From positions 1 to 55,106 of the forward strand of contig CAWGJO010000043.1 in the NCBI GenBank assembly GCA_963822945.1: DNA of 55,106 nt, in the 5' to 3' direction. This stretch comes from an uncultured Gemmatimonadaceae bacterium (GTDB lineage: Bacteria; Gemmatimonadota; Gemmatimonadetes; Gemmatimonadales; Gemmatimonadaceae). The notes under the pieces are model-generated. The model worked only from the letters and a program-made list of their open reading frames with translations. It searched no databases and was not told the DNA's origin. Positions 15,268-55,106 of this stretch are shown here, in pieces; within the stretch, counting starts at the first letter, position 1; each line of letters begins with the position of its first letter. Position numbers and translations under genes: made by a program.

Positions 15268-16881
15268 TCAGCCGGGATTGCGCGCGAACTCCCGCTGCCA
15301 CGCCGCCAGAATATCCGTCAGCCCCTCGGCCGGCTCCTGCCCGGCCTCCCAGTCGTGCGGCGAACCGGCCGCCAGCAAGAGCTGTCCCACCGCCGCATGG
15401 TCGCGCCCGTCGCGAGTGTCGCGCCCGTCGCGCCCATTAGGTCCGTGCATACGCGCCCCCTCGGCGGCCCACACCAGCGGCTGCCCGTGGAATTCGCGGT
15501 CGCGCACCGTCACCGACGCCCCGTGCGCCAGCAGCATGCGCACCGCATCGGGCCACCCTTCCATCGCTGCCGCGTGCAGCGGCGTCTTGCCGATCTCGTC
15601 GTCGCCGCGGTTGATGTCGAACCCGCACAACAGGAGCACGTCCAGCGCCGCCGCATCGCCCCGCTCCGCCGCCTGGATCAACACCAGATAGTGCTCCGGC
15701 GCGATCTCGTCGCGAAGCTGCGGGCGAGCGGCGAGCATCGACTCCGCCGTCGGCCGATCGCCGCGGCTGCATGCCGCCACCAGTCGGTCCACGTCCGACA
15801 CGTCGTCCGACGCCCCGTGCGCCAGCAGCCAGTCGGCCACGGCGCTGTTCCCATTCAGTGTCGCGACGGCGAACGGTGACCGTCCGTCGGCACGGCGACG
15901 CGTGACGTCGGCGCCCCGCGCCACCAGCCGCTCCACCATTTCCACGTCCCACCCACGCGCCGCCATGTGCAACGGCGTCTCACCGTTGGCATCGAACACC
16001 GGGTCGGCGTCGGCGCCATGGTCGAGCAGCCAATAGATCCCTGCTGGTGTGCGCGACCACTGCATGATCGCGTAGAGTGGCGCGGCTCCGTCGGTGGCCC
16101 ACGGGTGATTCACGTCCACGCCGTACTTGAGCAGCAGGTCGAGCGACGGGATCATGCCGCCCGACGCCGCGATGGGCAGCGTCACACCGTCGCTGGGATT
16201 CGCTCCGGCCTCCAGCAGCACCTCGGCAAGTTCCAGATTGCGCGTCGAGCAGACGGCGCCCCACAGGACCGGACGATGCACTCCATGGTGCAGCCAGGGC
16301 ACACGCGTGTTCGGGTCGACGCCGAGCGCGATGAGTTGGCGGCCGATCGCCACGGCGCCCTCGCGCCGGGCGTCGGAGTCGGAGCGCAGCGCATTGTGGC
16401 AGAGGTAGACGATCGGCGGCCACTCGCGGGGGCCGCCCGCCTTCGTGGCGAGCGATGGATCCTTGGCCAGCCGCACTTCCACCGCGGCGGCGTCGCCCAC
16501 CAGCAACTCGGTGTGAAAGTTCGCGCCGGCGATCCCGGCGTGCAGCGCCAGCAACCGTTCGGCGCGGTCGGTGCGTTCGTCGGTGCACGCCTCGATGAAC
16601 TGCGTCACCGCGGAGCCGAATTCGAGGGTGAGTTCCTCCACGCGTTCGCGCAGGGCATTCCACGAGTCGAAACCGAGTTCGCGCGCGATCACCGACTGGG
16701 CGTCGTGCAGGGCCACCGGCGCACGCGCAAGTTCGTCGTCGGAGCTGGCGGCGAAGGCGGGGAGCGTGCGGAAGCGCGCGAGCGCGGCGGGGTCTCCGGC
16801 GGTGCCGGAGCGGAGCAGGTCCTTGGCCTGGCGCTTGAGCTGGTCGAGGCTGGGACGTGCGGGTAGCTGCTGGGCCGTCAT
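15268..16881 (-). CDS. Ankyrin-repeat protein with LPxRPxLxxLKxQAK N-terminal domain
   Basis: GETPLHMAA, GKTPLHAAA and LL..GA repeats; RBS GGAGGT. Confidence 0.85.
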   Translation of the reverse strand: MTAQQLPARPSLDQLKRQAKDLLRSGTAGDPAALARFRTLPAFAASSDDELARAPVALHDAQSVIARELGFDSWNALRERVEELTLEFGSAVTQFIEACTDERTDRAERLLALHAGIAGANFHTELLVGDAAAVEVRLAKDPSLATKAGGPREWPPIVYLCHNALRSDSDARREGAVAIGRQLIALGVDPNTRVPWLHHGVHRPVLWGAVCSTRNLELAEVLLEAGANPSDGVTLPIAASGGMIPSLDLLLKYGVDVNHPWATDGAAPLYAIMQWSRTPAGIYWLLDHGADADPVFDANGETPLHMAARGWDVEMVERLVARGADVTRRRADGRSPFAVATLNGNSAVADWLLAHGASDDVSDVDRLVAACSRGDRPTAESMLAARPQLRDEIAPEHYLVLIQAAERGDAAALDVLLLCGFDINRGDDEIGKTPLHAAAMEGWPDAVRMLLAHGASVTVRDREFHGQPLVWAAEGARMHGPNGRDGRDTRDGRDHAAVGQLLLAAGSPHDWEAGQEPAEGLTDILAAWQREFARNPG

Positions 16882-28175: not shown

Positions 28176-29606
28176 CTACCCTTCGCCTCCCAGCGCCGCC
28201 CGCACCGCATCATAGTCCCCCTCCTCCCGACGCCAGCTGTTCCGCTCGCCATGCTCCGCCCACCCGAGCGGCGTGCCGCCGAAGTGGCGCTCTTCGACCG
28301 TGGGATCGGCACCGGCGGAGAGAAGCGCACGGACCAGCGCGGCGTTCCCGTGCCAGGCGGCCCAGTGCAGCGGCGTCGCTCCGGCTTCGTCGCTGACGGT
28401 CGCCGGCCACCCCGCCTTCAGCATGAGCCGCACCGCCGCCGCATCGTCCTGCGACGCCGCGGAGAGTATCCGCTGGCGCGCCTGGTCGGTGAGCGACGCC
28501 GCCGCAGCGTCTCCCGCCGCGAGTTGACGCTCCACCTCCGCCTCGTCCCCGGCATCACAGGCCGCGGCGAGCCGCAAGTCCTCCGGAGAACGCTCCATCA
28601 ACAGGGCGTACACGTCGTCGTGCCCGGCACGACGCGCCACGGCGTGCGCACTGCGGTAGTTGCCGAGCGTCCAGATGTAGATCGTTCCGCCGGCGCGCGG
28701 GTTCCGCATCGGGAACCAGCGCGGGGACACCATGGTGTACACCGACGCGGGATCGCGGTCCAGGTGCTCGCGCACGAGCGCGACATCGCCTACGGCGCAG
28801 GCCAACAAGACGTCGGTGCGGCACCCCCGCGCAATCAGCATCCTCACGATCTCCGGATGGTCGCCCACCAGATACTGTGCCGGCGTCGATTCGTGATCTA
28901 CGTCGAGGGCGTCGATATCGGCGCCGTGCGCGAGCAACAGTTCGGCAATCTCCACCGTCGACGCCACGTGCAGCGGCGTCTGGCCGTCGCCGTAGCGCGC
29001 CGTGACCACGGATGGATCGGCCTCGATCAGTTCCCGCAGACGGTCGATCATGCCGAGCTGCGCGGCGTCGTGCGCATCGACCATCGCGCCACGGGCGATA
29101 AGATGGGCATTCACCTCGGCGTGTGGCCCGAAGGCACTGAAACCGCCCGCCCACCAATGCGACCGCTGATCGATGTTCGCGCCCGCCTCGAGCAGTACGT
29201 CGATCATCGCGAGGTTGCGTTGTTTTGCTGCCGTGATCAGCGGTGTGGCGCCGAACGCGCCGCCGGGCAGCGCCTCGTCGAGCCGGCGCTTCACCGCCGG
29301 AAAGCGGGCGATCACATCGCGCACGCGTTGGGCGTCGTTGAGGAACACGGCCGCCTCGAGCGCGGCCGCCGGGTCCTCTCCCGCCAGCGAGAGCACGTGG
29401 TGCTTGAGCTGGGCCCAGTTCGAAAACTCGTACGAACGCGCGAGCGCATGCTGGGCATCGGCGAGCGTGGGAGCGGGCGCCCCGACGCGGCGCGGTCCGA
29501 ATGCCTCGACGGCTTCGGCCTTTCCGGCGGCGAAATCACGAAGCAGCGCCTTGGCCTGCTTCTTCAGGTGTTCGAGGTTCGGCCGCTCGGGCAGTGCACG
29601 AGACAT
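28176..29606 (-). CDS. Ankyrin-repeat protein with LPERPNLEHLKKQAK N-terminal domain
   Basis: GQTPLHVA, GATPLHWAA, GGTPLGWA; RBS GGAGG. Confidence 0.85.
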   Translation of the reverse strand: MSRALPERPNLEHLKKQAKALLRDFAAGKAEAVEAFGPRRVGAPAPTLADAQHALARSYEFSNWAQLKHHVLSLAGEDPAAALEAAVFLNDAQRVRDVIARFPAVKRRLDEALPGGAFGATPLITAAKQRNLAMIDVLLEAGANIDQRSHWWAGGFSAFGPHAEVNAHLIARGAMVDAHDAAQLGMIDRLRELIEADPSVVTARYGDGQTPLHVASTVEIAELLLAHGADIDALDVDHESTPAQYLVGDHPEIVRMLIARGCRTDVLLACAVGDVALVREHLDRDPASVYTMVSPRWFPMRNPRAGGTIYIWTLGNYRSAHAVARRAGHDDVYALLMERSPEDLRLAAACDAGDEAEVERQLAAGDAAAASLTDQARQRILSAASQDDAAAVRLMLKAGWPATVSDEAGATPLHWAAWHGNAALVRALLSAGADPTVEERHFGGTPLGWAEHGERNSWRREEGDYDAVRAALGGEG

Positions 29607-39549: not shown

Positions 39550-40080
39550 ATGCCCAAGCCTGCAGAAGTCACGTTGCCGAGTGACCGCGAAGTTCGCGTC
39601 ACCCGTTCGTTCCATGCCCCCCGCCAATTGGTGTGGGAAGCGCATACCAAGCCCGAACTCGTGCGGAGATGGCAGTGCGGCTACGATGGCTGGGATATGC
39701 CGGTGTGCGACATGGATGTCCGCGTCGGCGGCAAGTACAGGTGGCAGTGGAGAAACCGCGAAGACGGCAAGCAGTTCGGCTTCTTCGGCACGTACACCGA
39801 AGTCGACGGCCCGTCGAAGCTGGTCCAGGAAGAATACTTCGACCCGGGCGATGTCGGCGGCCCGGACGGTATCGGGGGCGCCATGCCGGTCGGCGATCCC
39901 TGCATTGGCTCACTCGAGTTCAGTGAGCACAACGGCGTCACGACGCTCATCTGCAATTTGAGGTACGTGTCGAAGGAAGCGCGTGATGCCGCCGTCTCCA
40001 CCGGGATGACCGAGGGCATGGAGTATAGCTACGCCCGCCTCGACGATATGCTTGTCAGCCGCCAGTCCGACGCCACGTGA
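39550..40080 (+). CDS. SRPBCC/AHSA1 domain protein
   Basis: TRSFHAPRQLVWEA, DVRVGGKYR. Confidence 0.85.
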   Translation: MPKPAEVTLPSDREVRVTRSFHAPRQLVWEAHTKPELVRRWQCGYDGWDMPVCDMDVRVGGKYRWQWRNREDGKQFGFFGTYTEVDGPSKLVQEEYFDPGDVGGPDGIGGAMPVGDPCIGSLEFSEHNGVTTLICNLRYVSKEARDAAVSTGMTEGMEYSYARLDDMLVSRQSDAT

Positions 40081-40139
40081 GGACGAGATGCTCAGACGCG
40101 ATTTCGTGAAGACTGCCACAGCGAGCGCCGTGCTGACGG

Positions 40140-40193
40140 AGCGAGCAGAGCCCTGCTGAACCCCACGCCGGCAGCAGCGGCGCCTCGTTAACT
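40140..40193 (-). repeat. Collapsed attC-family copy (R''/L'' arm intact, centre deleted)
   Basis: cccacgccggcagcagcggcgcctcgttaac; HigA stop codon lies in R''. Confidence 0.7.
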
Positions 40194-40493
40194 GGCCGGG
40201 GCGAGAACGGCGACCTCGCTCTCCAGGAGCTTCCCCAGCAGATCTCGTTGCACCTCAAGGTCGAAGCGCGCCTGAAGATTCAGCCAGAAACGGTCGCTCG
40301 TCCCGAAATAGCGCGCCAACCGCAAGGCCGTATCGGCCGACACCGCGCGCTTCCCATGCACGATCTCGTTCACCCGGCGCGCCGGGACGCTGATGTCGTG
40401 AGCCAAGCGATACTGGGACAGCCCGAACGGCTCGAGGAAGTCGTGCAGGAGCACTCCCCCCGGGTGAATCGCAGCCAGTTTGCGCGTCGTCAT
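40188..40493 (-). CDS. higA: HigA family antitoxin
   Basis: IHPG..L..FL, RRVNEIVHGKRAVSADTALRLARYFGTS..FWLNLQ. Confidence 0.9.
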   Translation of the reverse strand: MTTRKLAAIHPGGVLLHDFLEPFGLSQYRLAHDISVPARRVNEIVHGKRAVSADTALRLARYFGTSDRFWLNLQARFDLEVQRDLLGKLLESEVAVLAPAS

Positions 40494-43288: not shown

Positions 43289-43399
43289 TCCTGCGGCCGC
43301 GGCGCCCTGCTGCGGCGTTCTATAATAACTGCGGCCCGCGAGCGCAGCGTGCCGGCCGCTTCATCAGCCCACGCCGCCGGCAGCACGGCCTCGTTCGTC
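43289..43399 (-). repeat. attC, long family (R' degenerate)
   Basis: Family body conserved, GTT core lost. Confidence 0.8.
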
Positions 43400-43998: not shown

Positions 43999-44070
43999 GG
44001 CCAACGCCTGAGCTCAGCCGCCGGTAGCCCGCGTAGCAGGATGATGGTCGGCTGCAGCGATTTGTTGGGC
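43999..44070 (-). repeat. Canonical short attC (72 bp)
   Basis: GCCCAAC-AAATC-GCTGCAGC-CGAC...GCTGAGC-TCAGGC-GTTGGCC. Confidence 0.85.
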
Positions 44071-44613: not shown

Positions 44614-44724
44614 GCCCAACGCCGCGACGCGCTGCGGCGGCGCCCTATCATAATCACGGCCAGCGAGCGCAGCGAGTCGGCCGCTTCCAACGCCCGCACC
44701 GGCGGCAGCGGCGCCTCGCTAGGT
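44614..44724 (-). repeat. attC, long family
   Basis: + strand gcccaac...gctaggt. Confidence 0.85.
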
Positions 44725-44950: not shown

Positions 44951-45062
44951 ACCTAACGCCGCGGCAGCTCTGCTGCGGCGTCCTATCATAATCGCGGCCC
45001 GCGAGCGAAGCGAGCCGACCGCTTCCCTACCCCACGCCGGCACCAGCAGCGCCTCGTTAGGG
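44951..45062 (-). repeat. attC, long family
   Basis: acctaac...gttaggg. Confidence 0.9.
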
Positions 45063-45402: not shown

Positions 45403-45466
45403 CCCTGACCCGCCGGTTCAGCGGCGGCCCGCCCAACGCACCGTACGCCGCAACCGGTTGTGAGCC
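45403..45466 (-). repeat. Canonical-type short attC, degenerate cores
   Basis: GGCTCAC-AACCG-GTTGCGGC...GCTGAAC-CGGCGG-GTCAGGG. Confidence 0.7.
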
Positions 45467-46460: not shown

Positions 46461-46570
46461 GGCTAACGCCACGGCGCTCTGCTGCGGCGTCCTATCATAA
46501 TTGCGACGCGCGAGCGTAGCGAGCCGGCCGCCCTCTCACCCCACCTGCCTGCAACAGCGCCTCGTTAGCG
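46461..46570 (-). repeat. attC, long family
   Basis: ggctaac...gttagcg. Confidence 0.9.
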
Positions 46571-46836: not shown

Positions 46837-46947
46837 CGACAACGCCGCGGCACACCGCTGCGGCGTCGTATCATGATTGCTTCCGGCGAGCGCAGCGAGT
46901 CGGCCGCCTCCCCACCCCTCGCCGCCACCAGCCGCGCCTCGTTGGAT
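46837..46947 (-). repeat. attC, long family (diverged)
   Basis: cgacaac...gttggat. Confidence 0.8.
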
Positions 46948-47939: not shown

Positions 47940-48050
47940 GCCCAACGCCGCCGCGCGCTGCTGCGGCGTCCCATAGTAATCGCGGCCCGCGATCGTCGCG
48001 CGCCGGCCGCCTCCGCTGACATCGTCGCCAGCAGCGCCGCCTCGTTAGAC
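47940..48050 (-). repeat. attC, long family (diverged)
   Basis: gcccaac...gttagac. Confidence 0.85.
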
Positions 48051-48262: not shown

Positions 48263-48373
48263 ACCGAACGCCGCGGCGCTCTGCTGCGGCGTTTCCTAAT
48301 AATGGCGGCAGCCACCCGCAGAGCGCCAGCCGCCACCCCAGCCTACGCCGACGGCAGTAGCGCCTCGTTAGGG
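48263..48373 (-). repeat. attC, long family
   Basis: accgaac...gttaggg. Confidence 0.85.
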
Positions 48374-48768: not shown

Positions 48769-49566
48769 CTAGCTCGCGAGGTCGTAGAGCAGTCTGTAGA
48801 AGGTCATACGCTCAACGTCCATGGGCACCCCGTACTCAGCCAGGAACAGGTCCTCGAAACCGGGACCCAAGTTCCACGTTAGGCTCCACGTTGCGACGGC
48901 GAGGTCCCACCATCGGTCTGCAACGCCCAACTCTCCAAGGTCGACGTATCCCGTCGCTCGCTCATCCTCGATGAGGATGTTCGGTAGGCAGTAATCGCCA
49001 TGGCAGACCACCAGGTCTTCAAAGCCGGGACAGGCTGATTCCAGGAGCTGGACGGCCTCAACCGGCGTCAGATGGGAGAACTCGACATGGAAGTCGCGTT
49101 GCTGGTCGATCAGCCCTGCCTCGAGCCGCTTGCGAACATGTCTAAGGGCCGCCCCTAGGCGGAAATCAAATGGGCAAGTCGCCACCGGAGCCATCTCGTG
49201 GAAGGCACGGAGGCCCCGAGCGAGGATCCGGGCAAGCGCCGCTGGCTCCTCCGTCAGCTTCGGATCCGTGGCGTCTCGGCCGGGCAGCGCGGTCGTCATC
49301 AGCCAGTCGATGGACGCCTCCGTTCCTTGGCGAACGACGCCGGGCACGGGCAGGTGGGGGTGCGCCCACCGCATGCGGTCCGCTTCACCCGCGAGAGCCG
49401 GGTAATGGCCGGCTTCGGCCAGCTTCACGAAGAACTCCGGGCCACCGCTGCGCACCAGGCGGTAGGTAACGGAATGCTGGGCGTACTGATGGGTGAGGAC
49501 CCAGTCGAAATCCGAGTAGCTTGCCTTCAGCTGCGGCGGTGGCTGCAGCCAACCCTTCTCGTCCAT
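48769..49566 (-). CDS. Aminoglycoside 3'-phosphotransferase family protein
   Basis: FFVK, E..RM.W, VVCHGDYCLPNILI, YVDLGELGVADRWWDLA, FYRLL. Confidence 0.85.
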   Translation of the reverse strand: MDEKGWLQPPPQLKASYSDFDWVLTHQYAQHSVTYRLVRSGGPEFFVKLAEAGHYPALAGEADRMRWAHPHLPVPGVVRQGTEASIDWLMTTALPGRDATDPKLTEEPAALARILARGLRAFHEMAPVATCPFDFRLGAALRHVRKRLEAGLIDQQRDFHVEFSHLTPVEAVQLLESACPGFEDLVVCHGDYCLPNILIEDERATGYVDLGELGVADRWWDLAVATWSLTWNLGPGFEDLFLAEYGVPMDVERMTFYRLLYDLAS

Positions 49567-49610
49567 ATCGCTCCCGCCACCCCCGTGCCAGATCCGTCCA
49601 TCGGACGGCA

Positions 49611-49722
49611 CTCTAACGCCGCGGCGCTCTGCTGCGGCGTTCCCTAATAGAATGCGGCAGGCGCCCGCAGGGCGCCAGCCGCCTCCCTACCTCACGCCGC
49701 CAGCAGCAGCGCCTCGTTAGGC
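49611..49722 (-). repeat. attC, long family
   Basis: ctctaac...gttaggc. Confidence 0.9.
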
Positions 49723-49950
49723 GGTCCCCGCCTTCGAAGGCCGCCAGGTGAGCGCTAGTTTTCGCCCCGATGCCGCACAGTCGCGCAGGTAGAGGTTGAT
49801 CAACGTCTGATACGGCAGCTCCGTTTCGTCGGCCAGCCCTTTGAAATACTCGACGGTCGACTGATCTAACCGGATCGTGACCGACCGCTTGAGCCGCTTC
49901 GCATAGGGATTCTTGACCGCCTTCGAGAAATCATAGTGCTTGCGCATCAT
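49717..49950 (-). CDS. brnA: BrnA family antitoxin
   Basis: YDFSKAVKNPY, VTIRLD..VEYFK, YQTLINLYLR. Confidence 0.85.
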   Translation of the reverse strand: MMRKHYDFSKAVKNPYAKRLKRSVTIRLDQSTVEYFKGLADETELPYQTLINLYLRDCAASGRKLALTWRPSKAGTA

Positions 49951-50240
49951 CGCCTCCGATCAGCATAGAGCTCCCGTTCGCTTCGGTCTGCCTTGCGCGC
50001 CGAGATGATCCGAATCACAGCGCCGTCCCGCGTTTCGCAGTGGACGACGACGAGCACCCGGAGCCCCGAACTCACGCCGAGCAAGATGAACCGTTCCTGC
50101 CCAACCGAGTGATCGGGATCGGCCACCAAGAGGGCCTCGTCGTCCTCGAACACGGTCATCGCTTCTGTGAACGACACGTGATGCTTGCGGGCGTTCTCGG
50201 CGGCTTTGACCGGATCCCAGTCGAAACGCGGCTGACTCAT
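49947..50240 (-). CDS. brnT: BrnT family toxin
   Basis: FDWDPVKA..N.RKH.VSF.EA, RIISARKA. Confidence 0.9.
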   Translation of the reverse strand: MSQPRFDWDPVKAAENARKHHVSFTEAMTVFEDDEALLVADPDHSVGQERFILLGVSSGLRVLVVVHCETRDGAVIRIISARKADRSERELYADRRR

Positions 50241-50245
50241 GCTCA

Positions 50246-50273
50246 AATGTACGTATGTTGTACGTACAGTCAA
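50246..50273 (-). promoter_or_regulatory. brnTA promoter with overlapping palindromic operator
   Basis: TTGACT-N16-TACATT 5 nt before the ATG; TGTACGTA..TACGTACA inverted repeat. Confidence 0.65.
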
Positions 50274-50292
50274 GTCTTGAGGCCCGTGGCCC

Positions 50293-50403
50293 GCCTAACG
50301 CCGCGGCGCTCTGCTGCGGCGTTCTATCATAATTGCGGCCAGCGAGCGCAGCGAGCCGGCCGCTTCCCTAGCCCACGCCGGCAGCAGCAGCGCCTCGTTA
50401 AGT
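50293..50403 (-). repeat. attC, long family
   Basis: gcctaac...gttaagt. Confidence 0.92.
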
Positions 50404-50595
50404 GCCGCGGACACCGGTTCCATCCCTGATCCCGCCCGCCCGGAGCCGCCCGAGTTCGTCGGCGATGCGCTCGTGGGCGGCTACGCCTCGCTCCATCGCG
50501 TGCAGAAAGCGCAGCACAAAGTAGATGACGAGCGCGATGTAGACGAGGGGGAAGAACAGCACCCACAGACCACCACCATTCACGTGGAAATTCAT
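50398..50595 (-). CDS. Small single-TM cassette protein
   Basis: RBS AGGAG; stop in R''. Confidence 0.7.
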   Translation of the reverse strand: MNFHVNGGGLWVLFFPLVYIALVIYFVLRFLHAMERGVAAHERIADELGRLRAGGIRDGTGVRGT

Positions 50596-50624
50596 AGCGG
50601 CTCCTAGGTAAGCGGCGGTCGTGC

Positions 50625-50735
50625 ACCTAACGCCGCGGCGCTCTGCTGCGGCGTCCTATCATAGTTGCGGCCGGCGAGCGTAGCGAGTCGGCCGCTTCCA
50701 AAGCCCACGCCGACGGCAGCAGCGCCTCGTTGGTA
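50625..50735 (-). repeat. attC, long family
   Basis: acctaac...gttggta. Confidence 0.9.
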
Positions 50736-50761
50736 GGTTGCCCGGTCCCTCGACACGGAGT

Positions 50762-51244
50762 TCAACATCTCGTCTCGCCGCGCGACGGTCGCCGAGGTCG
50801 GCAGATGTGTGTACTCCTTCCTCGGCGAGTGGGCTGTGGACCCGACGGCTTCGCATTCCTCGCACCGTGGAGCAGTCTCGCGACCTCGCGCCGCTCTCCC
50901 GCACTTAGCTCGTGGAGCAACACGCGAATGTTCCTTTCGTACAGCCGCCGCGCAAGGAGCGGCGCCTGACGCAGGAAGCTGGGGCCGGCGGCATCGAAGA
51001 GCGCGAAATGGTCGAAGGTAACGAGGGGCCCACGGCCGCCTAAGGTCGGGATCCTATGCGCCCCGATACCGATCCACGTGATGCGTCCGTCGATGCCGTG
51101 CGACGCAGGCTCGGCACCAAACCCGCCGACACCGATGACCGCCTCGAAATCCCAAGACCGGACGCGACCCATACAGTCATGGATGCCGACCAGCCATTCG
51201 TCCGGATCACCCGTATGTGTCCGCTTATAAATGAGCGTTCGCAT
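50762..51244 (-). CDS. Hypothetical cassette protein (YKRTH.GDPD N-terminus)
   Basis: RBS AGGAG, fills the cassette. Confidence 0.65.
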   Translation of the reverse strand: MRTLIYKRTHTGDPDEWLVGIHDCMGRVRSWDFEAVIGVGGFGAEPASHGIDGRITWIGIGAHRIPTLGGRGPLVTFDHFALFDAAGPSFLRQAPLLARRLYERNIRVLLHELSAGERREVARLLHGARNAKPSGPQPTRRGRSTHICRPRRPSRGETRC

Positions 51245-51275
51245 ACTCTCCTGGAATCGCGATCCTGAGCAACTG

Positions 51276-51386
51276 GCCTAACGCCGCGGCGCTCTGCTGC
51301 GGCGTCCTATCATAATTGCGGCCCGCGAGCGCAGCGAGCCGGCCGCCTCCCAAGCCCACGCCGCCGGCAGCAGCGCCTCGTTAGAC
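51276..51386 (-). repeat. attC, long family
   Basis: gcctaac...gttagac. Confidence 0.92.
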
Positions 51387-51418
51387 GGACGCGCCAAGAC
51401 TCGCACAACTGCCGCATG

Positions 51419-51972
51419 TCAAATCATTTCCCCGAGCCAAGGGAAACACAGAACGCAAATCCAGAAGAACAACAACCAGTGGATGGCCAAACTGGCTTTC
51501 CATTTCTCAGTCTTGCGAAAGTGCAGCCACGAGAGGGCAAGCGCACCGAGTACCAGGCCATTCACGGAGATGTACTTAAGGAGCAGATCCAAGCCCTGGT
51601 ACTGCATTCCATAATGCCACCCGCGTGCAAAGTACACGATACTTGCCGCCGTGACTCCGCGCAGCCAGAACTACCGTCTTCCGTGGATATAGGTTCTCGG
51701 CCCTCGCTATTGGCCTGCACCATACCCAGAACACCCCGGCAACCAACGTCGGATAGATGAGTGTGCCAATAGTCGTCCCAATATCGTACAAAGCGGTCGT
51801 CCGCTGAGCTTCACGGCAGCGTATAGCACCACCGTTCGAATGGCGCCACCGTCGCTAAGCCGATGATCCAACCGGGGACCGGCATCGGCGGCAAGAACGG
51901 GCTTACCGCCGCGAACCCCCAAAGGGTCAGGGAGGCGACGCCAACTGCGAGATGTCGTTTCTTCCCCGTCAT
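51419..51972 (-). pseudogene. Membrane protein cassette gene broken into several frames
   Basis: Hydrophobic ORF pieces 51419-51637 and 51576-51791, plus an upstream ATG at 51972. Confidence 0.45.
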
Positions 51973-51990
51973 CGGAACACCGTTGGTGCC

Positions 51991-52101
51991 GTCTAACGCC
52001 GCGGCGCTCTGCTGCGGCGTTCCATAATAATTGCGGCCAGCGAGCGCAGCGAGCCGGCCGCTTCCCTAGCCCCCGCCGGCGGCAGCAGCGCCTCGTTAGG
52101 C
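51991..52101 (-). repeat. attC, long family
   Basis: gtctaac...gttaggc. Confidence 0.92.
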
Positions 52102-52357
52102 AGCGGCCGCGCATCGCTTCACGGAACGCGCGCCGCAGTCACTACCAGGAACAGATCGCAATGACCACTCACGACTGACTAGGCCACGCCCGGATGACGT
52201 CGCCACGACGGCAGCGGCCACACGGCAATCGTCGACCGACCACGATGCCCGCTGCGGCAGAATGCAGAACGATCTCGCGGTCGGGTCTAGGAGGGCTCGA
52301 CGAACCGATCGAAGCGGCCGACTCGCGAAAGAGTGTGGACACCGCGGACGATTCAAC

Positions 52358-52468
52358 AGCCAACGCACCGCGCGCGCTCTGCGCGATGCTATGCATGACT
52401 GCGGCCAGCGAGCGGAGCAAGGCGGCCACCACACTCGACGAGGTGTCCGCAGCAACGCCTCGTTATGG
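52358..52468 (-). repeat. attC, long family (strongly degenerate)
   Basis: agccaac..gcgctctgc..gcggccagcgagcg..cgcctcgttat. Confidence 0.7.
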
Positions 52469-52735
52469 ACGATGTGACCCGCCGAAATGCCTGCGCGCGA
52501 TCGCTGCCGGCCGTGTACACAGGATCCGCGCACCTGTGGCACCCCAACGAACGCTTCCATCGCGACGATGGCCGCACGGAGCCTCGGCAGACCGGAAACA
52601 CTCGCCATCGAGCGAATGGGCGCGCCATCGCAAGAACGCGCCCGCAGCGCGAGTCTCGCAACCAGCGCAGCGATCGCGTAGCGAGGTCTGGCGCCCCGGA
52701 TGCTTCCCTATTCGACCGTCTGGACACTCGTGCCT

Positions 52736-52846
52736 GCCTAACGCCGCGGCGCTCTGTTGCGGCGTCCTATCATAATCGCGGCCCGCGAGCGCAGCGAGCC
52801 GGCCGCTTCCAAAGCCCACGCCGACGGCAGCAGCGCCTCGTTAGGT
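52736..52846 (-). repeat. attC, long family
   Basis: gcctaac...gttaggt. Confidence 0.92.
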
Positions 52847-52902
52847 GGCCGGAGCGCCGACTGGCTCCCTCACCCAACTGGTTACCCCATCGGATTGCTC
52901 AG

Positions 52903-53466
52903 TCACTTGGGCCACGCGTATCCAATTCCAGCTCGGCTGCCGGTGAGGAATGGTTCGCGGTCAACGGGTTGTGTGAACTCGCTCTCGACGACTCCGATTC
53001 GCTCATTGAGCATGCCAAGATTGTAACTGGAACGAATTCGCTGGATCAGCGACGACTGAGCCCGGCGAATACGTACTCGCCCCATTGTTCTCCCGACTAT
53101 CGACCGCGACAAGGATATACAGGTACACGCGGTGAAAGCCCAACTCGGCGAGGCGGTTCGCCGACCAATGCCCTCTTGAAGGTTCGCCAAGCCGTTGGGC
53201 TCTCCAGTCCGAAACGCCGACGCTCCAACCTTAATTCTCTTGACTTCGACAGCGATCGCCTTCTCTGGTGCGTCGGGCGGGACGATCAGCATATCAACGT
53301 CACCCGATGGACGCCCCCGTGTACCGTGCGGCAGGGAGCGCCGCGGCAAGATTGTCGAGTCGTGCGGGGTGTCCGGCGGCAGGCCAATGAGTTGGCGCCA
53401 ACGCGGGTCTGCCACGATTCGGTCAACGAACTGGGCTTCGGTGATATTGGCGATTGACGGTTCCAT
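52903..53466 (-). CDS. Hypothetical protein with PD-(D/E)XK-like motif (possibly frameshifted)
   Basis: GDVDMLIV...AIAVEVKR. Confidence 0.5.
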   Translation of the reverse strand: MEPSIANITEAQFVDRIVADPRWRQLIGLPPDTPHDSTILPRRSLPHGTRGRPSGDVDMLIVPPDAPEKAIAVEVKRIKVGASAFRTGEPNGLANLQEGIGRRTASPSWAFTACTCISLSRSIVGRTMGRVRIRRAQSSLIQRIRSSYNLGMLNERIGVVESEFTQPVDREPFLTGSRAGIGYAWPK

Positions 53467-53473
53467 GTGGTCC

Positions 53474-53583
53474 ACCTAACGCCGCGGCGCTCTGCTGCGG
53501 CGTTCACAATTATGGCGGCAGGCGGCAACCGGCGACCAGCCGCTTCCCTAACCCACGCCGCTGGCAGCAGCGCCTCGTTAGGC
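53474..53583 (-). repeat. attC, long family
   Basis: acctaac...gttaggc. Confidence 0.9.
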
Positions 53584-53879
53584 GGCTGGTGGGCAGGATT
53601 GGCCCGCGTCCAAGGAGCGCCTTCGCAGTAACGACCGGGCCGCGCACCGTGATCCGGAACCTCACGAATTGGGGACGCCAGTGAGACTTGGCTTGTTCCA
53701 GATGAGCATCTTCTTTGGGTACGCCACACAGTCCGTCAAGACAGATACGCCGAACCGCACCTTCCATCACCGTCCTCACAAAGACTCGGCATCGTTGAGG
53801 TCACCGCCTAGTTGGACCTGCAACTGAGACTGACCATCGATAACCGTGTCGATAGTGGCAGGTTAGTCTGGCGAGTTCC

Positions 53880-54167
53880 TCACGGATAGAGGTGTATTTT
53901 CGCTTCTGCCAAGTTCCGTGCCGGCAGCAAGCCGATGAGGTCGATGGCCCCAGTCCTCGAATGTGCTTCGCGACCGTTACGAACGTGTTTCATCGCCTCT
54001 TGCTGCCACGCGCACCTCGGCACCCTCCATGCCCAGATCATGGAGGGTCTTAATGCGAGGAAGAGCGCCCCTACAAAATCCAGAGGTCGCGGAGGCGCTT
54101 TCCCCGGAGTGTAGAACCAAACCAGGAACGCGACCACGAAGACGATGGCGACAACCAGAATCCTCAC
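53880..54167 (-). CDS. Membrane protein fragment in cassette
   Basis: Two hydrophobic segments; does not fill the cassette. Confidence 0.4.
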   Translation of the reverse strand: MRILVVAIVFVVAFLVWFYTPGKAPPRPLDFVGALFLALRPSMIWAWRVPRCAWQQEAMKHVRNGREAHSRTGAIDLIGLLPARNLAEAKIHLYP

Positions 54168-54240
54168 TGTCTCTTCCCAGTTCTAATGGTGCGCGGAATC
54201 ACCCGCCTAGTGACTCAACGGTCCGACACGCTGGCAGCAC

Positions 54241-54351
54241 GCCTAACGCCGCGGCGCTCTGCTGCGGCGTTCTATCATAATTGCGGCCAGCGAGCGCAGC
54301 GAGCCGGCCGCTTCCCTAGCCCACGCCGTCGGCAGCAGCGCCTCGTTAGGT
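54241..54351 (-). repeat. attC, long family
   Basis: gcctaac...gttaggt. Confidence 0.92.
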
Positions 54352-54570
54352 TGACGCATCGCGAGCCCTGGTCGCCGCCTTCTCGCCACGCGCGATACGA
54401 ACGATCTGGGTGCCATTCACCATAGCGGCCAGCCCGATGACCACGCCGGCAATGCGGCCCCCGGGCGATCGTAGGCCGAAGACGCCAAGCGCGCCAGCAA
54501 CCACTGCGGTAGCCCCTAGCAGGCTCAACACCACTCGGCCCATCCGATCTCTACGCCGCGAAGTAGTCAC
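54346..54570 (-). CDS. Small two-TM cassette protein
   Basis: Stop TAA in R''. Confidence 0.65.
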   Translation of the reverse strand: MTTSRRRDRMGRVVLSLLGATAVVAGALGVFGLRSPGGRIAGVVIGLAAMVNGTQIVRIARGEKAATRARDAST

Positions 54571-54589
54571 GTCGGGATCTCCGGGTTCA

Positions 54590-54700
54590 ACCTAACGCCG
54601 CGGCGCTCTGCTGCGGCGGTTCATAATAGTTGCGGCCAGCGAGCGCAGCGAGCCGGCCGCTTCCATACCCCACGCCGCCAGCAGCAGCGCCTCGTTAGGC
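54590..54700 (-). repeat. attC, long family
   Basis: acctaac...gttaggc. Confidence 0.92.
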
Positions 54701-55087: not shown

Positions 55088-55106
55088 AGGCGACGACCAA
55101 TTGCTG

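Follow-up and report, generated by a model that had tools for sequence, protein, structure and literature searches.

The window analysed here, a stretch of 55,106 nt from an uncultured Gemmatimonadaceae bacterium (contig CAWGJO010000043.1, assembly GCA_963822945.1), carries on its minus (top) strand an array of repeats resembling attC, the recombination site of integron cassettes. Between positions 49611 and 54700 a repeat of 110–112 nt occurs ten times, nine of them intact. All nine intact copies have the order R''-GAGGC-GCTGCTGC ... L'-GCCGCGGC-R', with 5 nt between R'' and L'' and 8 nt between L' and R' (5/8 below), and all nine keep the AAC of R'' (RYYYAAC) and the GTT of R' (GTTRRRY). In none of them do both spacer arms keep to the typical 5–6 nt. 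A preliminary description of the sequence had proposed the 5/8 spacing for every intact copy, and it is read again here in nine out of nine with minor box variants only: ACAGAGC for L' at 52736, TACCAAC and ACTTAAC for R'' at 50625 and 50293 respectively, and GTTAGAG for R' at 49611.

The layout can be followed in the copy at 54590–54700. Its R'' box lies at 54700–54694, spacer'' at 54693–54689, L'' at 54688–54681, L' at 54611–54605, spacer' at 54604–54597 and R' at 54596–54590; the extrahelical base 16 falls at 54685 and a second at about 54678, and the crossover is expected between 54596 and 54595, a position taken from the accessible text of PMC2811028. This copy and those at 54241–54351, 53474–53583 and 49611–49722 were assigned from box positions together with the predicted fold, and those at 52736–52846, 51276–51386, 50625–50735 and 50293–50403 from box positions. 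The copy at 51991–52101 has intact boxes and is predicted to misfold into a local hairpin; the tenth, at 52358–52468, is a decayed member of the same family (28.8 bits to model R1). The array continues past the contig end at 55106.

Outside this span, between 43289 and 48373, lie seven further family copies, all on the minus strand. One is an intact 5/8 site (48263–48373, R' GTTCGGT), and one, at 44951–45062, has a spacer' of 9 nt and a predicted misfold (probability of the recombinogenic fold, pfold, 0.001). The copies at 47940–48050, 46837–46947 and 44614–44724 are decayed, that at 46461–46570 is partly decayed, and the distal copy at 43289–43399 is decayed with its GTT lost. Decay thus increases toward the distal end of the array, and 7 of the 17 family copies in the window are affected. 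Two short sites here had been described as attCs of the usual 5/6 spacing. This holds for the one at 43999–44070, a clean canonical 5/6 attC in the same array (40.1 bits); the other, at 45403–45466, has neither AAC nor GTT, scores 1 bit in the attC model and is therefore at best a decayed site. Our custom finder gave one match in 818 kb of shuffled sequence; it called 12 sites in this single array, and the rest of the 3.97-Mb genome yielded nine, all isolated.

The register of the boxes was checked against its alternatives. Folding of the 11 5/8 sites of the genome favours the 8-nt register in every case, by 3–10 kcal/mol over the best 5-nt alternative and by 7–12 kcal/mol over the best 6-nt one. 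All seven L-box bases are paired in the 8-nt register, and forced registers of 6, 5 and 7 nt leave 6, 5 and 3 paired. The fold of the 5/8 register is unmatched by any 5/5 or 5/6 register, and on these energies and pairings the alternative registers were rejected. L'' and L' are complementary apart from the single extrahelical base at 16, with covariation over 41 distinct L-box pairs, and a published table gives the same L'' and L' for a Gemmatimonadetes integron, there with a spacer' of 5 nt (PMC4889954 supplement). When 17 sites, 11 of them from this genome, are aligned on the common structure, 96.7% of the cells pair, compared with 29–59% in slid controls, and two-sided changes occur in 11 of the 23 pairs, with 0 of 500 shuffles reaching as high; the sites were hand-chosen, include kin, and are the same sequences from which the structure was derived.

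The longer spacer arm is itself partly paired. Among 88 distinct 5/8 spacer pairs the three spacer bases beside the L box form Watson-Crick pairs in 98% (u5:v1), 91% (u4:v2) and 95% (u3:v3), and pairing stops at the next position (u2:v4, 3%). All three pairs of this clamp are present together in 75 of the 88, where shuffling of the partners gives a mean of 28.6 and a maximum of 38, and they covary, two of the three positions varying freely (G-C, C-G, A-T) and the third being mainly G-C. The same test is positive in 0 of 22 5/6 sites and 0 of 16 5/5 sites from IMG/VR and in 6 of 37 5/6 sites from Gemmatimonadota. The central spacer remains partly unpaired, as a 1x4 loop in the window family and as a 2x5 loop generally. 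The 1-versus-4 bulge proposed earlier is the predicted bottom-strand fold in four of the five family copies folded, the exception being the copy at 51991, which prefers a local hairpin. It is, however, a property of this family: the R-box-side pair that produces the 1x4 loop obeys Watson-Crick rules in no more than 12 of the 88 spacer pairs, with wobble in 33 more, so that the general form is the 2x5 loop.

The predicted pfold of the recombinogenic bottom-strand hairpin is 0.14–0.63 in eight of the nine intact copies and 0.002 in the copy at 51991, and over 84 sites of the window family the probability of the correct fold has a predicted median of 0.50 on the bottom strand versus 0.14 on the top. 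The second extrahelical base sits at 23/24 in the predicted folds, after a 6-bp stem. On the bottom strand, 224 of 232 5/8 sites have C as base 16, and so does every one of the phylum's 62 5/6 sites. We also observed that the right arm of the window family can fold on itself, as an 11-bp hairpin pairing the AAC of R' with a nearby GTT, and that this hairpin wins at 51991–52101 and 44951–45062; it might tune the excision rate.

The 5/8 form is widespread in Gemmatimonadales. A 19-nt piece of the right arm occurs, as an exact match, in 58 GTDB contig stretches, every one of them titled Gemmatimonadaceae or Gemmatimonadota. Across 401 genomes of the phylum, many of them fragmented assemblies, patterns built on one L-box pattern that covers only some L boxes matched 41 genomes for 5/8, 20 for 5/5-6 and none for the reversed control. 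By family the 5/8 matches comprise 20 of 93 genomes in f1, 16 of 166 in f2 and 2 of 5 in f3, plus two single matches in other families of the class. We called 331 sites in stretches from 25 genomes, with 8 nt in 232, 6 nt in 62, 9 nt in 24, 7 nt in 9 and 5 nt in 4, counts which are no frequency since the genomes were partly picked for holding 5/8 matches and the kin among them are not independent. Arrays in relatives reach dozens of sites; some are nearly pure 8-nt arrays (48 of 49 sites in G386, 36 of 36 in G102), some pure 6-nt arrays (30 of 30 in G197, 17 of 17 in G039), and several, those of G101, G300, G057, G003 and G010 and the window array, are mixed. When the other spacer was left free as well, 4/6, 4/7 and 4/8 sites came to light (L112 2671–6640 of G071, L118 3579–7707 of G010, and L196). 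Both spacer arms thus vary in the phylum, and some sites are ambiguous in register (4/7 or 5/8). The suggestion of a divergent attC class is therefore borne out, and the class is wider than was proposed, being order-wide, made up of several unrelated sequence types and marked by the covarying 3-bp extension. Elsewhere the 5/8 form was found in 0 of 45 IMG/VR sites, in 1 of 47 sites beside IntI1-like integrases and in 0 of 6 sites in three named plasmid loci; doubtful calls made by the finder in class 1 and class 2 loci at a looser threshold are not counted. The attC family has no match in Rfam, no match over 44% of the attC length in PLSDB plasmids, and the 5/8 clamp pattern has 0 matches in IMG/VR.

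The ends of the cassettes carry traces of movement. R'' is complementary in its first four bases to the 5' end of the cassette's own sequence in 169 of the 197 cassettes that end in a site with a spacer' of at least 8 nt; complementarity to the adjacent in-array R' is found in 55 of the 197, where a within-genome shuffle gives a mean of 64 and a maximum of 86. In this genome the signature is present in six of nine short same-strand cassettes. Excision as a circle followed by reinsertion at G/TT leaves such ends, and is an established integron mechanism (PMC4889954, in its accessible part). From this signature in the sequences, the 5/8 sites have likely recombined in the past. Cassette order in relatives adds to the picture. 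The BrnT/BrnA toxin-antitoxin cassette at 49723–50292 (minus strand) and its small neighbour at 50404–50624 (minus strand) adjoin in the window and lie apart in G101, at 98.6–99.6% identity, where BrnTA occurs twice. The former is 99% identical to the two differently placed G101 cassettes, the latter 97–99% identical to cassettes elsewhere in the G101 and G104 arrays, and both recur at 97–99.6% identity at other array positions in relatives. Each of the 13 sequencing runs yielded a small share. In contigs from four runs the coverage falls chiefly on attC copies and on the BrnTA cassette, with loose ends close to the borders of sites among the 24 of 108 listed; as joints in the run contigs fall at 88% likeness between repeats, they were not used as evidence for excision.

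The next cassette, at 48769–49611 on the minus strand, holds an open reading frame for an APH(3')-family aminoglycoside phosphotransferase (222 bits, NCBIfam cut-off 205) and ends in a 5/8 attC; the loci compared contained no close copy of this reading frame. A half attC, the left arm only, lies at 40080–40200 (minus strand), 3 kb past the array end and after a pair that by eye resembles the HigBA toxin-antitoxin, which suggests that the array formerly reached further. A lone decayed copy of the family is found apart from both arrays of this genome (G000), on contig C37 at 73191–73290. Ankyrin-type-like protein repeats at 15561–15994 and 28357–29262 of the window are unrelated to the attC array.

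The preliminary description had further suggested a divergent integrase matched to these sites, and this found no support in the sequences: the neighbouring enzymes pass the IntI cut-off, form no single clade, share no diagnostic residue and adjoin mixed arrays. An integrase match is present in 61 of 101 genomes of the family. Relatives that share the attC family have intI upstream, oriented like the array and followed by an attI-like core 100–300 nt past its stop, and full-length IntI matches without stops lie directly upstream of 5/8 arrays. This inverted layout occurs in G101, G103, G106, G002/G107, G110, G402, G386 and G320, as well as beside the 6-nt arrays of G039 and G099, and was already listed for the phylum (PMC4889954 supplement). 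Two integrases of relatives taken as proxies score 410 and 419 bits against TIGR02249 (cut-off 265), and the relatives' integrases have the catalytic motifs and the IntI-specific insertion region and can be aligned from end to end with IntI1 and VchIntIA, free of large indels. Mapped on the integrase tree, the 8-nt label needs five changes, at least two of them forced by starred branches, and the same attC family adjoins integrases only 51–52% identical. Comparison with the three pure 6-nt arrays showed no residue or indel by which the integrases of 8-nt arrays could be told apart. Leucine versus methionine at IntI1 position 129 was considered as an 8-nt signature and rejected, leucine being found also in 4 of 6 mixed and 4 of 15 outside rows. 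One 5/8 clamp site is found in the array of a 76% IntI1-like integrase (metagenome contig L279).

AAT and GTT are mostly 5 nt apart in the attI-like cores of the window-family integrons. Downstream of intI in L106, L107, L103, L109, L116, L119 and L196, including the same-genus G002, the core is of a second type, in which only 4 nt separate the two. A long-branched IntI subgroup (G101, G103 and G110; among the integrases of L101, L105, L108 and L110) has an altered start of the IntI-specific insertion, and its attC family is also found beside a different IntI subgroup of the same genus.

We consider it probable that the 5/8 repeats are integron attC sites which fold as single strands and are recombined in that form by an integron integrase of ordinary type. 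In attC the bottom strand is cut within the R' AAC, between A and C, and a single base of homology is enough for the exchange (PMC2811028, accessible text). In the predicted fold the bottom strand presents extrahelical bases 16 and 23 as canonical sites do, and the three extra pairs would lengthen the L stem, leaving the 2x5 loop (1x4 in the window family) just 3' of AAC. The uncleaved 5-nt arm would set the distance between the two integrase boxes, and the clamp would fix the register beside the L box. The 8-nt arm comes after the cleaved C, so that the extra bases are on the exchanged strand; there they may loop out, preserving an unpaired bulge at strand exchange. If the 5-nt arm does set the box distance and the extra bases do loop out, a special integrase would be unneeded. 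Cassettes would in this way have been excised and reinserted at G/TT in the past. For VCR, the accessible part of PMC2727003 reports that full pairing of the spacer costs 27-fold and a C at position 16 only 2.7-fold.

Several points weigh against recombination by an ordinary integrase. Spacer shape alters VCR recombination by orders of magnitude (accessible parts of PMC5027507, PMC2095811 and PMC2727003). The constrained bottom-strand fold of the window family is less stable than the top by a median of +1.3 kcal/mol, the opposite order to that of the mobile-integron sites in the available text of PMC5027507. The second extrahelical base (23) is T on the bottom strand in 49 of 232 5/8 sites versus 49 of 62 5/6 sites. 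The 232 of 331 sites, as already said, carry no frequency. The 23 Gemmatimonadota integrases tested are one group, so that a clade-wide adaptation is possible. Finally, intI is absent from this 88%-complete assembly, where the only matches are Xer-like, on C24; the array, however, leaves the contig at 55106, and intI could lie beyond. On contig C34 of the same genome (L003 5838–6090) an attI-like and promoter-like region aligns with the integrons of four relatives, and by eye a GNAT-like reading frame occupies the place of intI. The region is followed by an intact 5/8 cassette and by decayed sites, and from its sequence the locus looks like an integron platform that has lost its integrase.

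One wider proposal is possible but doubtful: that Gemmatimonadales possess a clamp-and-bulge attC class (three covarying pairs and a 2x5 loop, with 4/7, 4/8 and 5/9 kin) on which their own IntI clade is efficient and the class 1 integrase poor. If this were true, a large soil cassette pool, resistance-like genes included, would be walled off and largely missed by default detection, and the sites would form a natural series for how integrases measure box spacing. The main alternative to an ordinary integrase, itself regarded as unlikely, is that 5/8 sites require a co-adapted Gemmatimonadota IntI clade, that an IntI1-type enzyme recombines them poorly and that the cassette pool is partly separate. 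In a tree of 38 integrases the 23 from Gemmatimonadota do fall as one supported group on one side of a 99/95 branch, apart from the 15 outside sequences, in an alignment that kept all rows and with IntI2 as a long branch. The 5/8 form is likewise scarce elsewhere (0/96 in the training set discussed below, 0/45 in IMG/VR, 1/47 beside IntI1-like integrases, 0/6 in plasmid loci), and the linker change P109L in IntI1 shifts its tolerance of spacer shape (PMC2095811, accessible part). But the scarcity may reflect ecology rather than the enzyme, a 5/8 site has been captured in the IntI1-like array of L279, the same attC family lies beside integrases of only 51–52% identity, and no residue or indel splits the 8-nt from the 6-nt array enzymes, with three pure 6-nt arrays to compare.

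That the repeats are relics, once attC-like and since copied or kept without recombination, the 8-nt spacer being a tolerated defect, seems to us very improbable. The absence of intI from the assembly and the 7 decayed copies out of 17 would fit such a reading, yet the decay is concentrated distally, as arrays would show, and relics would not be expected to combine compensatory L-box and clamp changes across unrelated sequence types with the circle signature at 169 of 197 cassette ends, near-identical cassettes in different order in relatives and full-length, stop-free IntI matches directly upstream of relatives' 5/8 arrays. We give next to no credence to a misassigned box register, with the sites as ordinary 5/6 attCs, for although a forced 6-nt register still pairs six of the seven L-box bases in the window family, it is 7–12 kcal/mol less stable, breaks the upper stem, and misfits both the 41 distinct covarying L-box pairs and the published box assignment.

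The 5/8 family bears on attC design rules, which derive from 5/5 and 5/6 sites: a natural 8-nt arm with a covarying 3-bp clamp would tell from which of the two arms the integrase takes its measure and what size of bulge is tolerated. The family bears also on detection. We re-implemented the attC_4 model of IntegronFinder from the published supplement, without the hidden Markov model filters of Infernal and the local_max step, and obtained 0.0751, 0.00965 and 0.00825 for three published E-values of 0.075, 0.0096 and 0.0082. The intact window copies score 6.4–19.5 bits, and shortening the spacer in silico adds 9–12. The model thus penalises such sites by 10–11 bits. At E ≤ 1 the re-implementation passes three of the nine copies for a 3.97-Mb replicon and seven of the nine for a 55-kb contig. 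The expectation that standard models would miss these sites is thus right at genome scale, where most 5/8 sites are lost with default attC_4, and wrong at contig scale, where most are kept. In samples from relatives, scores of at least 18.7 bits (the 4-Mb threshold) were reached by 19 of 70 8-nt sites, 4 of 15 9-nt sites and 38 of 40 6-nt sites, so that cassette counts in this abundant soil phylum are likely underestimated; the likely undercount includes the APH(3')-family cassette of the window array. A 5/7 site located between two published sites is missing from the PMC4889954 table and scores 8.7 bits in the re-implementation.

Long spacers are partly anticipated in print, which limits the novelty of the finding. 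The spacer arms are described as "usually five to six bases" each (PMC5027507), an older counting of 7 and 7-or-8 bp (PMC5454043) being taken here as 5 and 5–6, and spacers of "up to 10 nucleotides" have been allowed (PMC7370490), each as given in the accessible part of the paper. In the IntegronFinder training alignment, counted by eye, 0 of 96 sites have 8 nt, two have 7 nt and one has 10 nt, and the attC_4 model implies 0.2% for 8-nt spacers. Review schematics show 5–8 bp for the L'-R' spacer, a range that our literature search did not confirm. No paper on a 5/8 class or a paired clamp was found, subscription journals and bioRxiv supplements being out of reach. Models for Acidobacteria and Planctomycetes (PMC8352920, supplementary file 4, seen in part) imply about 13% of spacers of at least 8 nt each, a rough Markov estimate from two of 11 models, identified by position and window size.

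Compared with these taxon models of PMC8352920, in which, as far as the accessible material goes, long spacers are a minority, are undiscussed and are modelled as unpaired, and which include no Gemmatimonadota model among the 11, the sites described here have the long arm as their rule in the window family. They differ also from the Gemmatimonadetes integron sites listed by Cury et al. 2016 (PMC4889954), which have 5-nt L'-R' spacers. As a locus, the window array is like a CALIN, a cluster of attC sites without an integrase, in that no intI is present in the assembly, and unlike one in that the array leaves the contig at 55106. Set beside canonical attC sites (attCaadA7, VCR and the attC_4 set), the window sites share AAC and GTT, the 5-nt R''-L'' spacer, the 8-nt L'' with its extrahelical base 16, a second extrahelical base 23 after a 6-bp stem, the conserved base beside the R' AAC, and a long variable terminal structure, their length of 110–112 nt being inside the known range. 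They are unlike them in having C as bottom-strand base 16 and no conserved T at base 23, and in the 8-nt L'-R' spacer with its three covarying spacer pairs.

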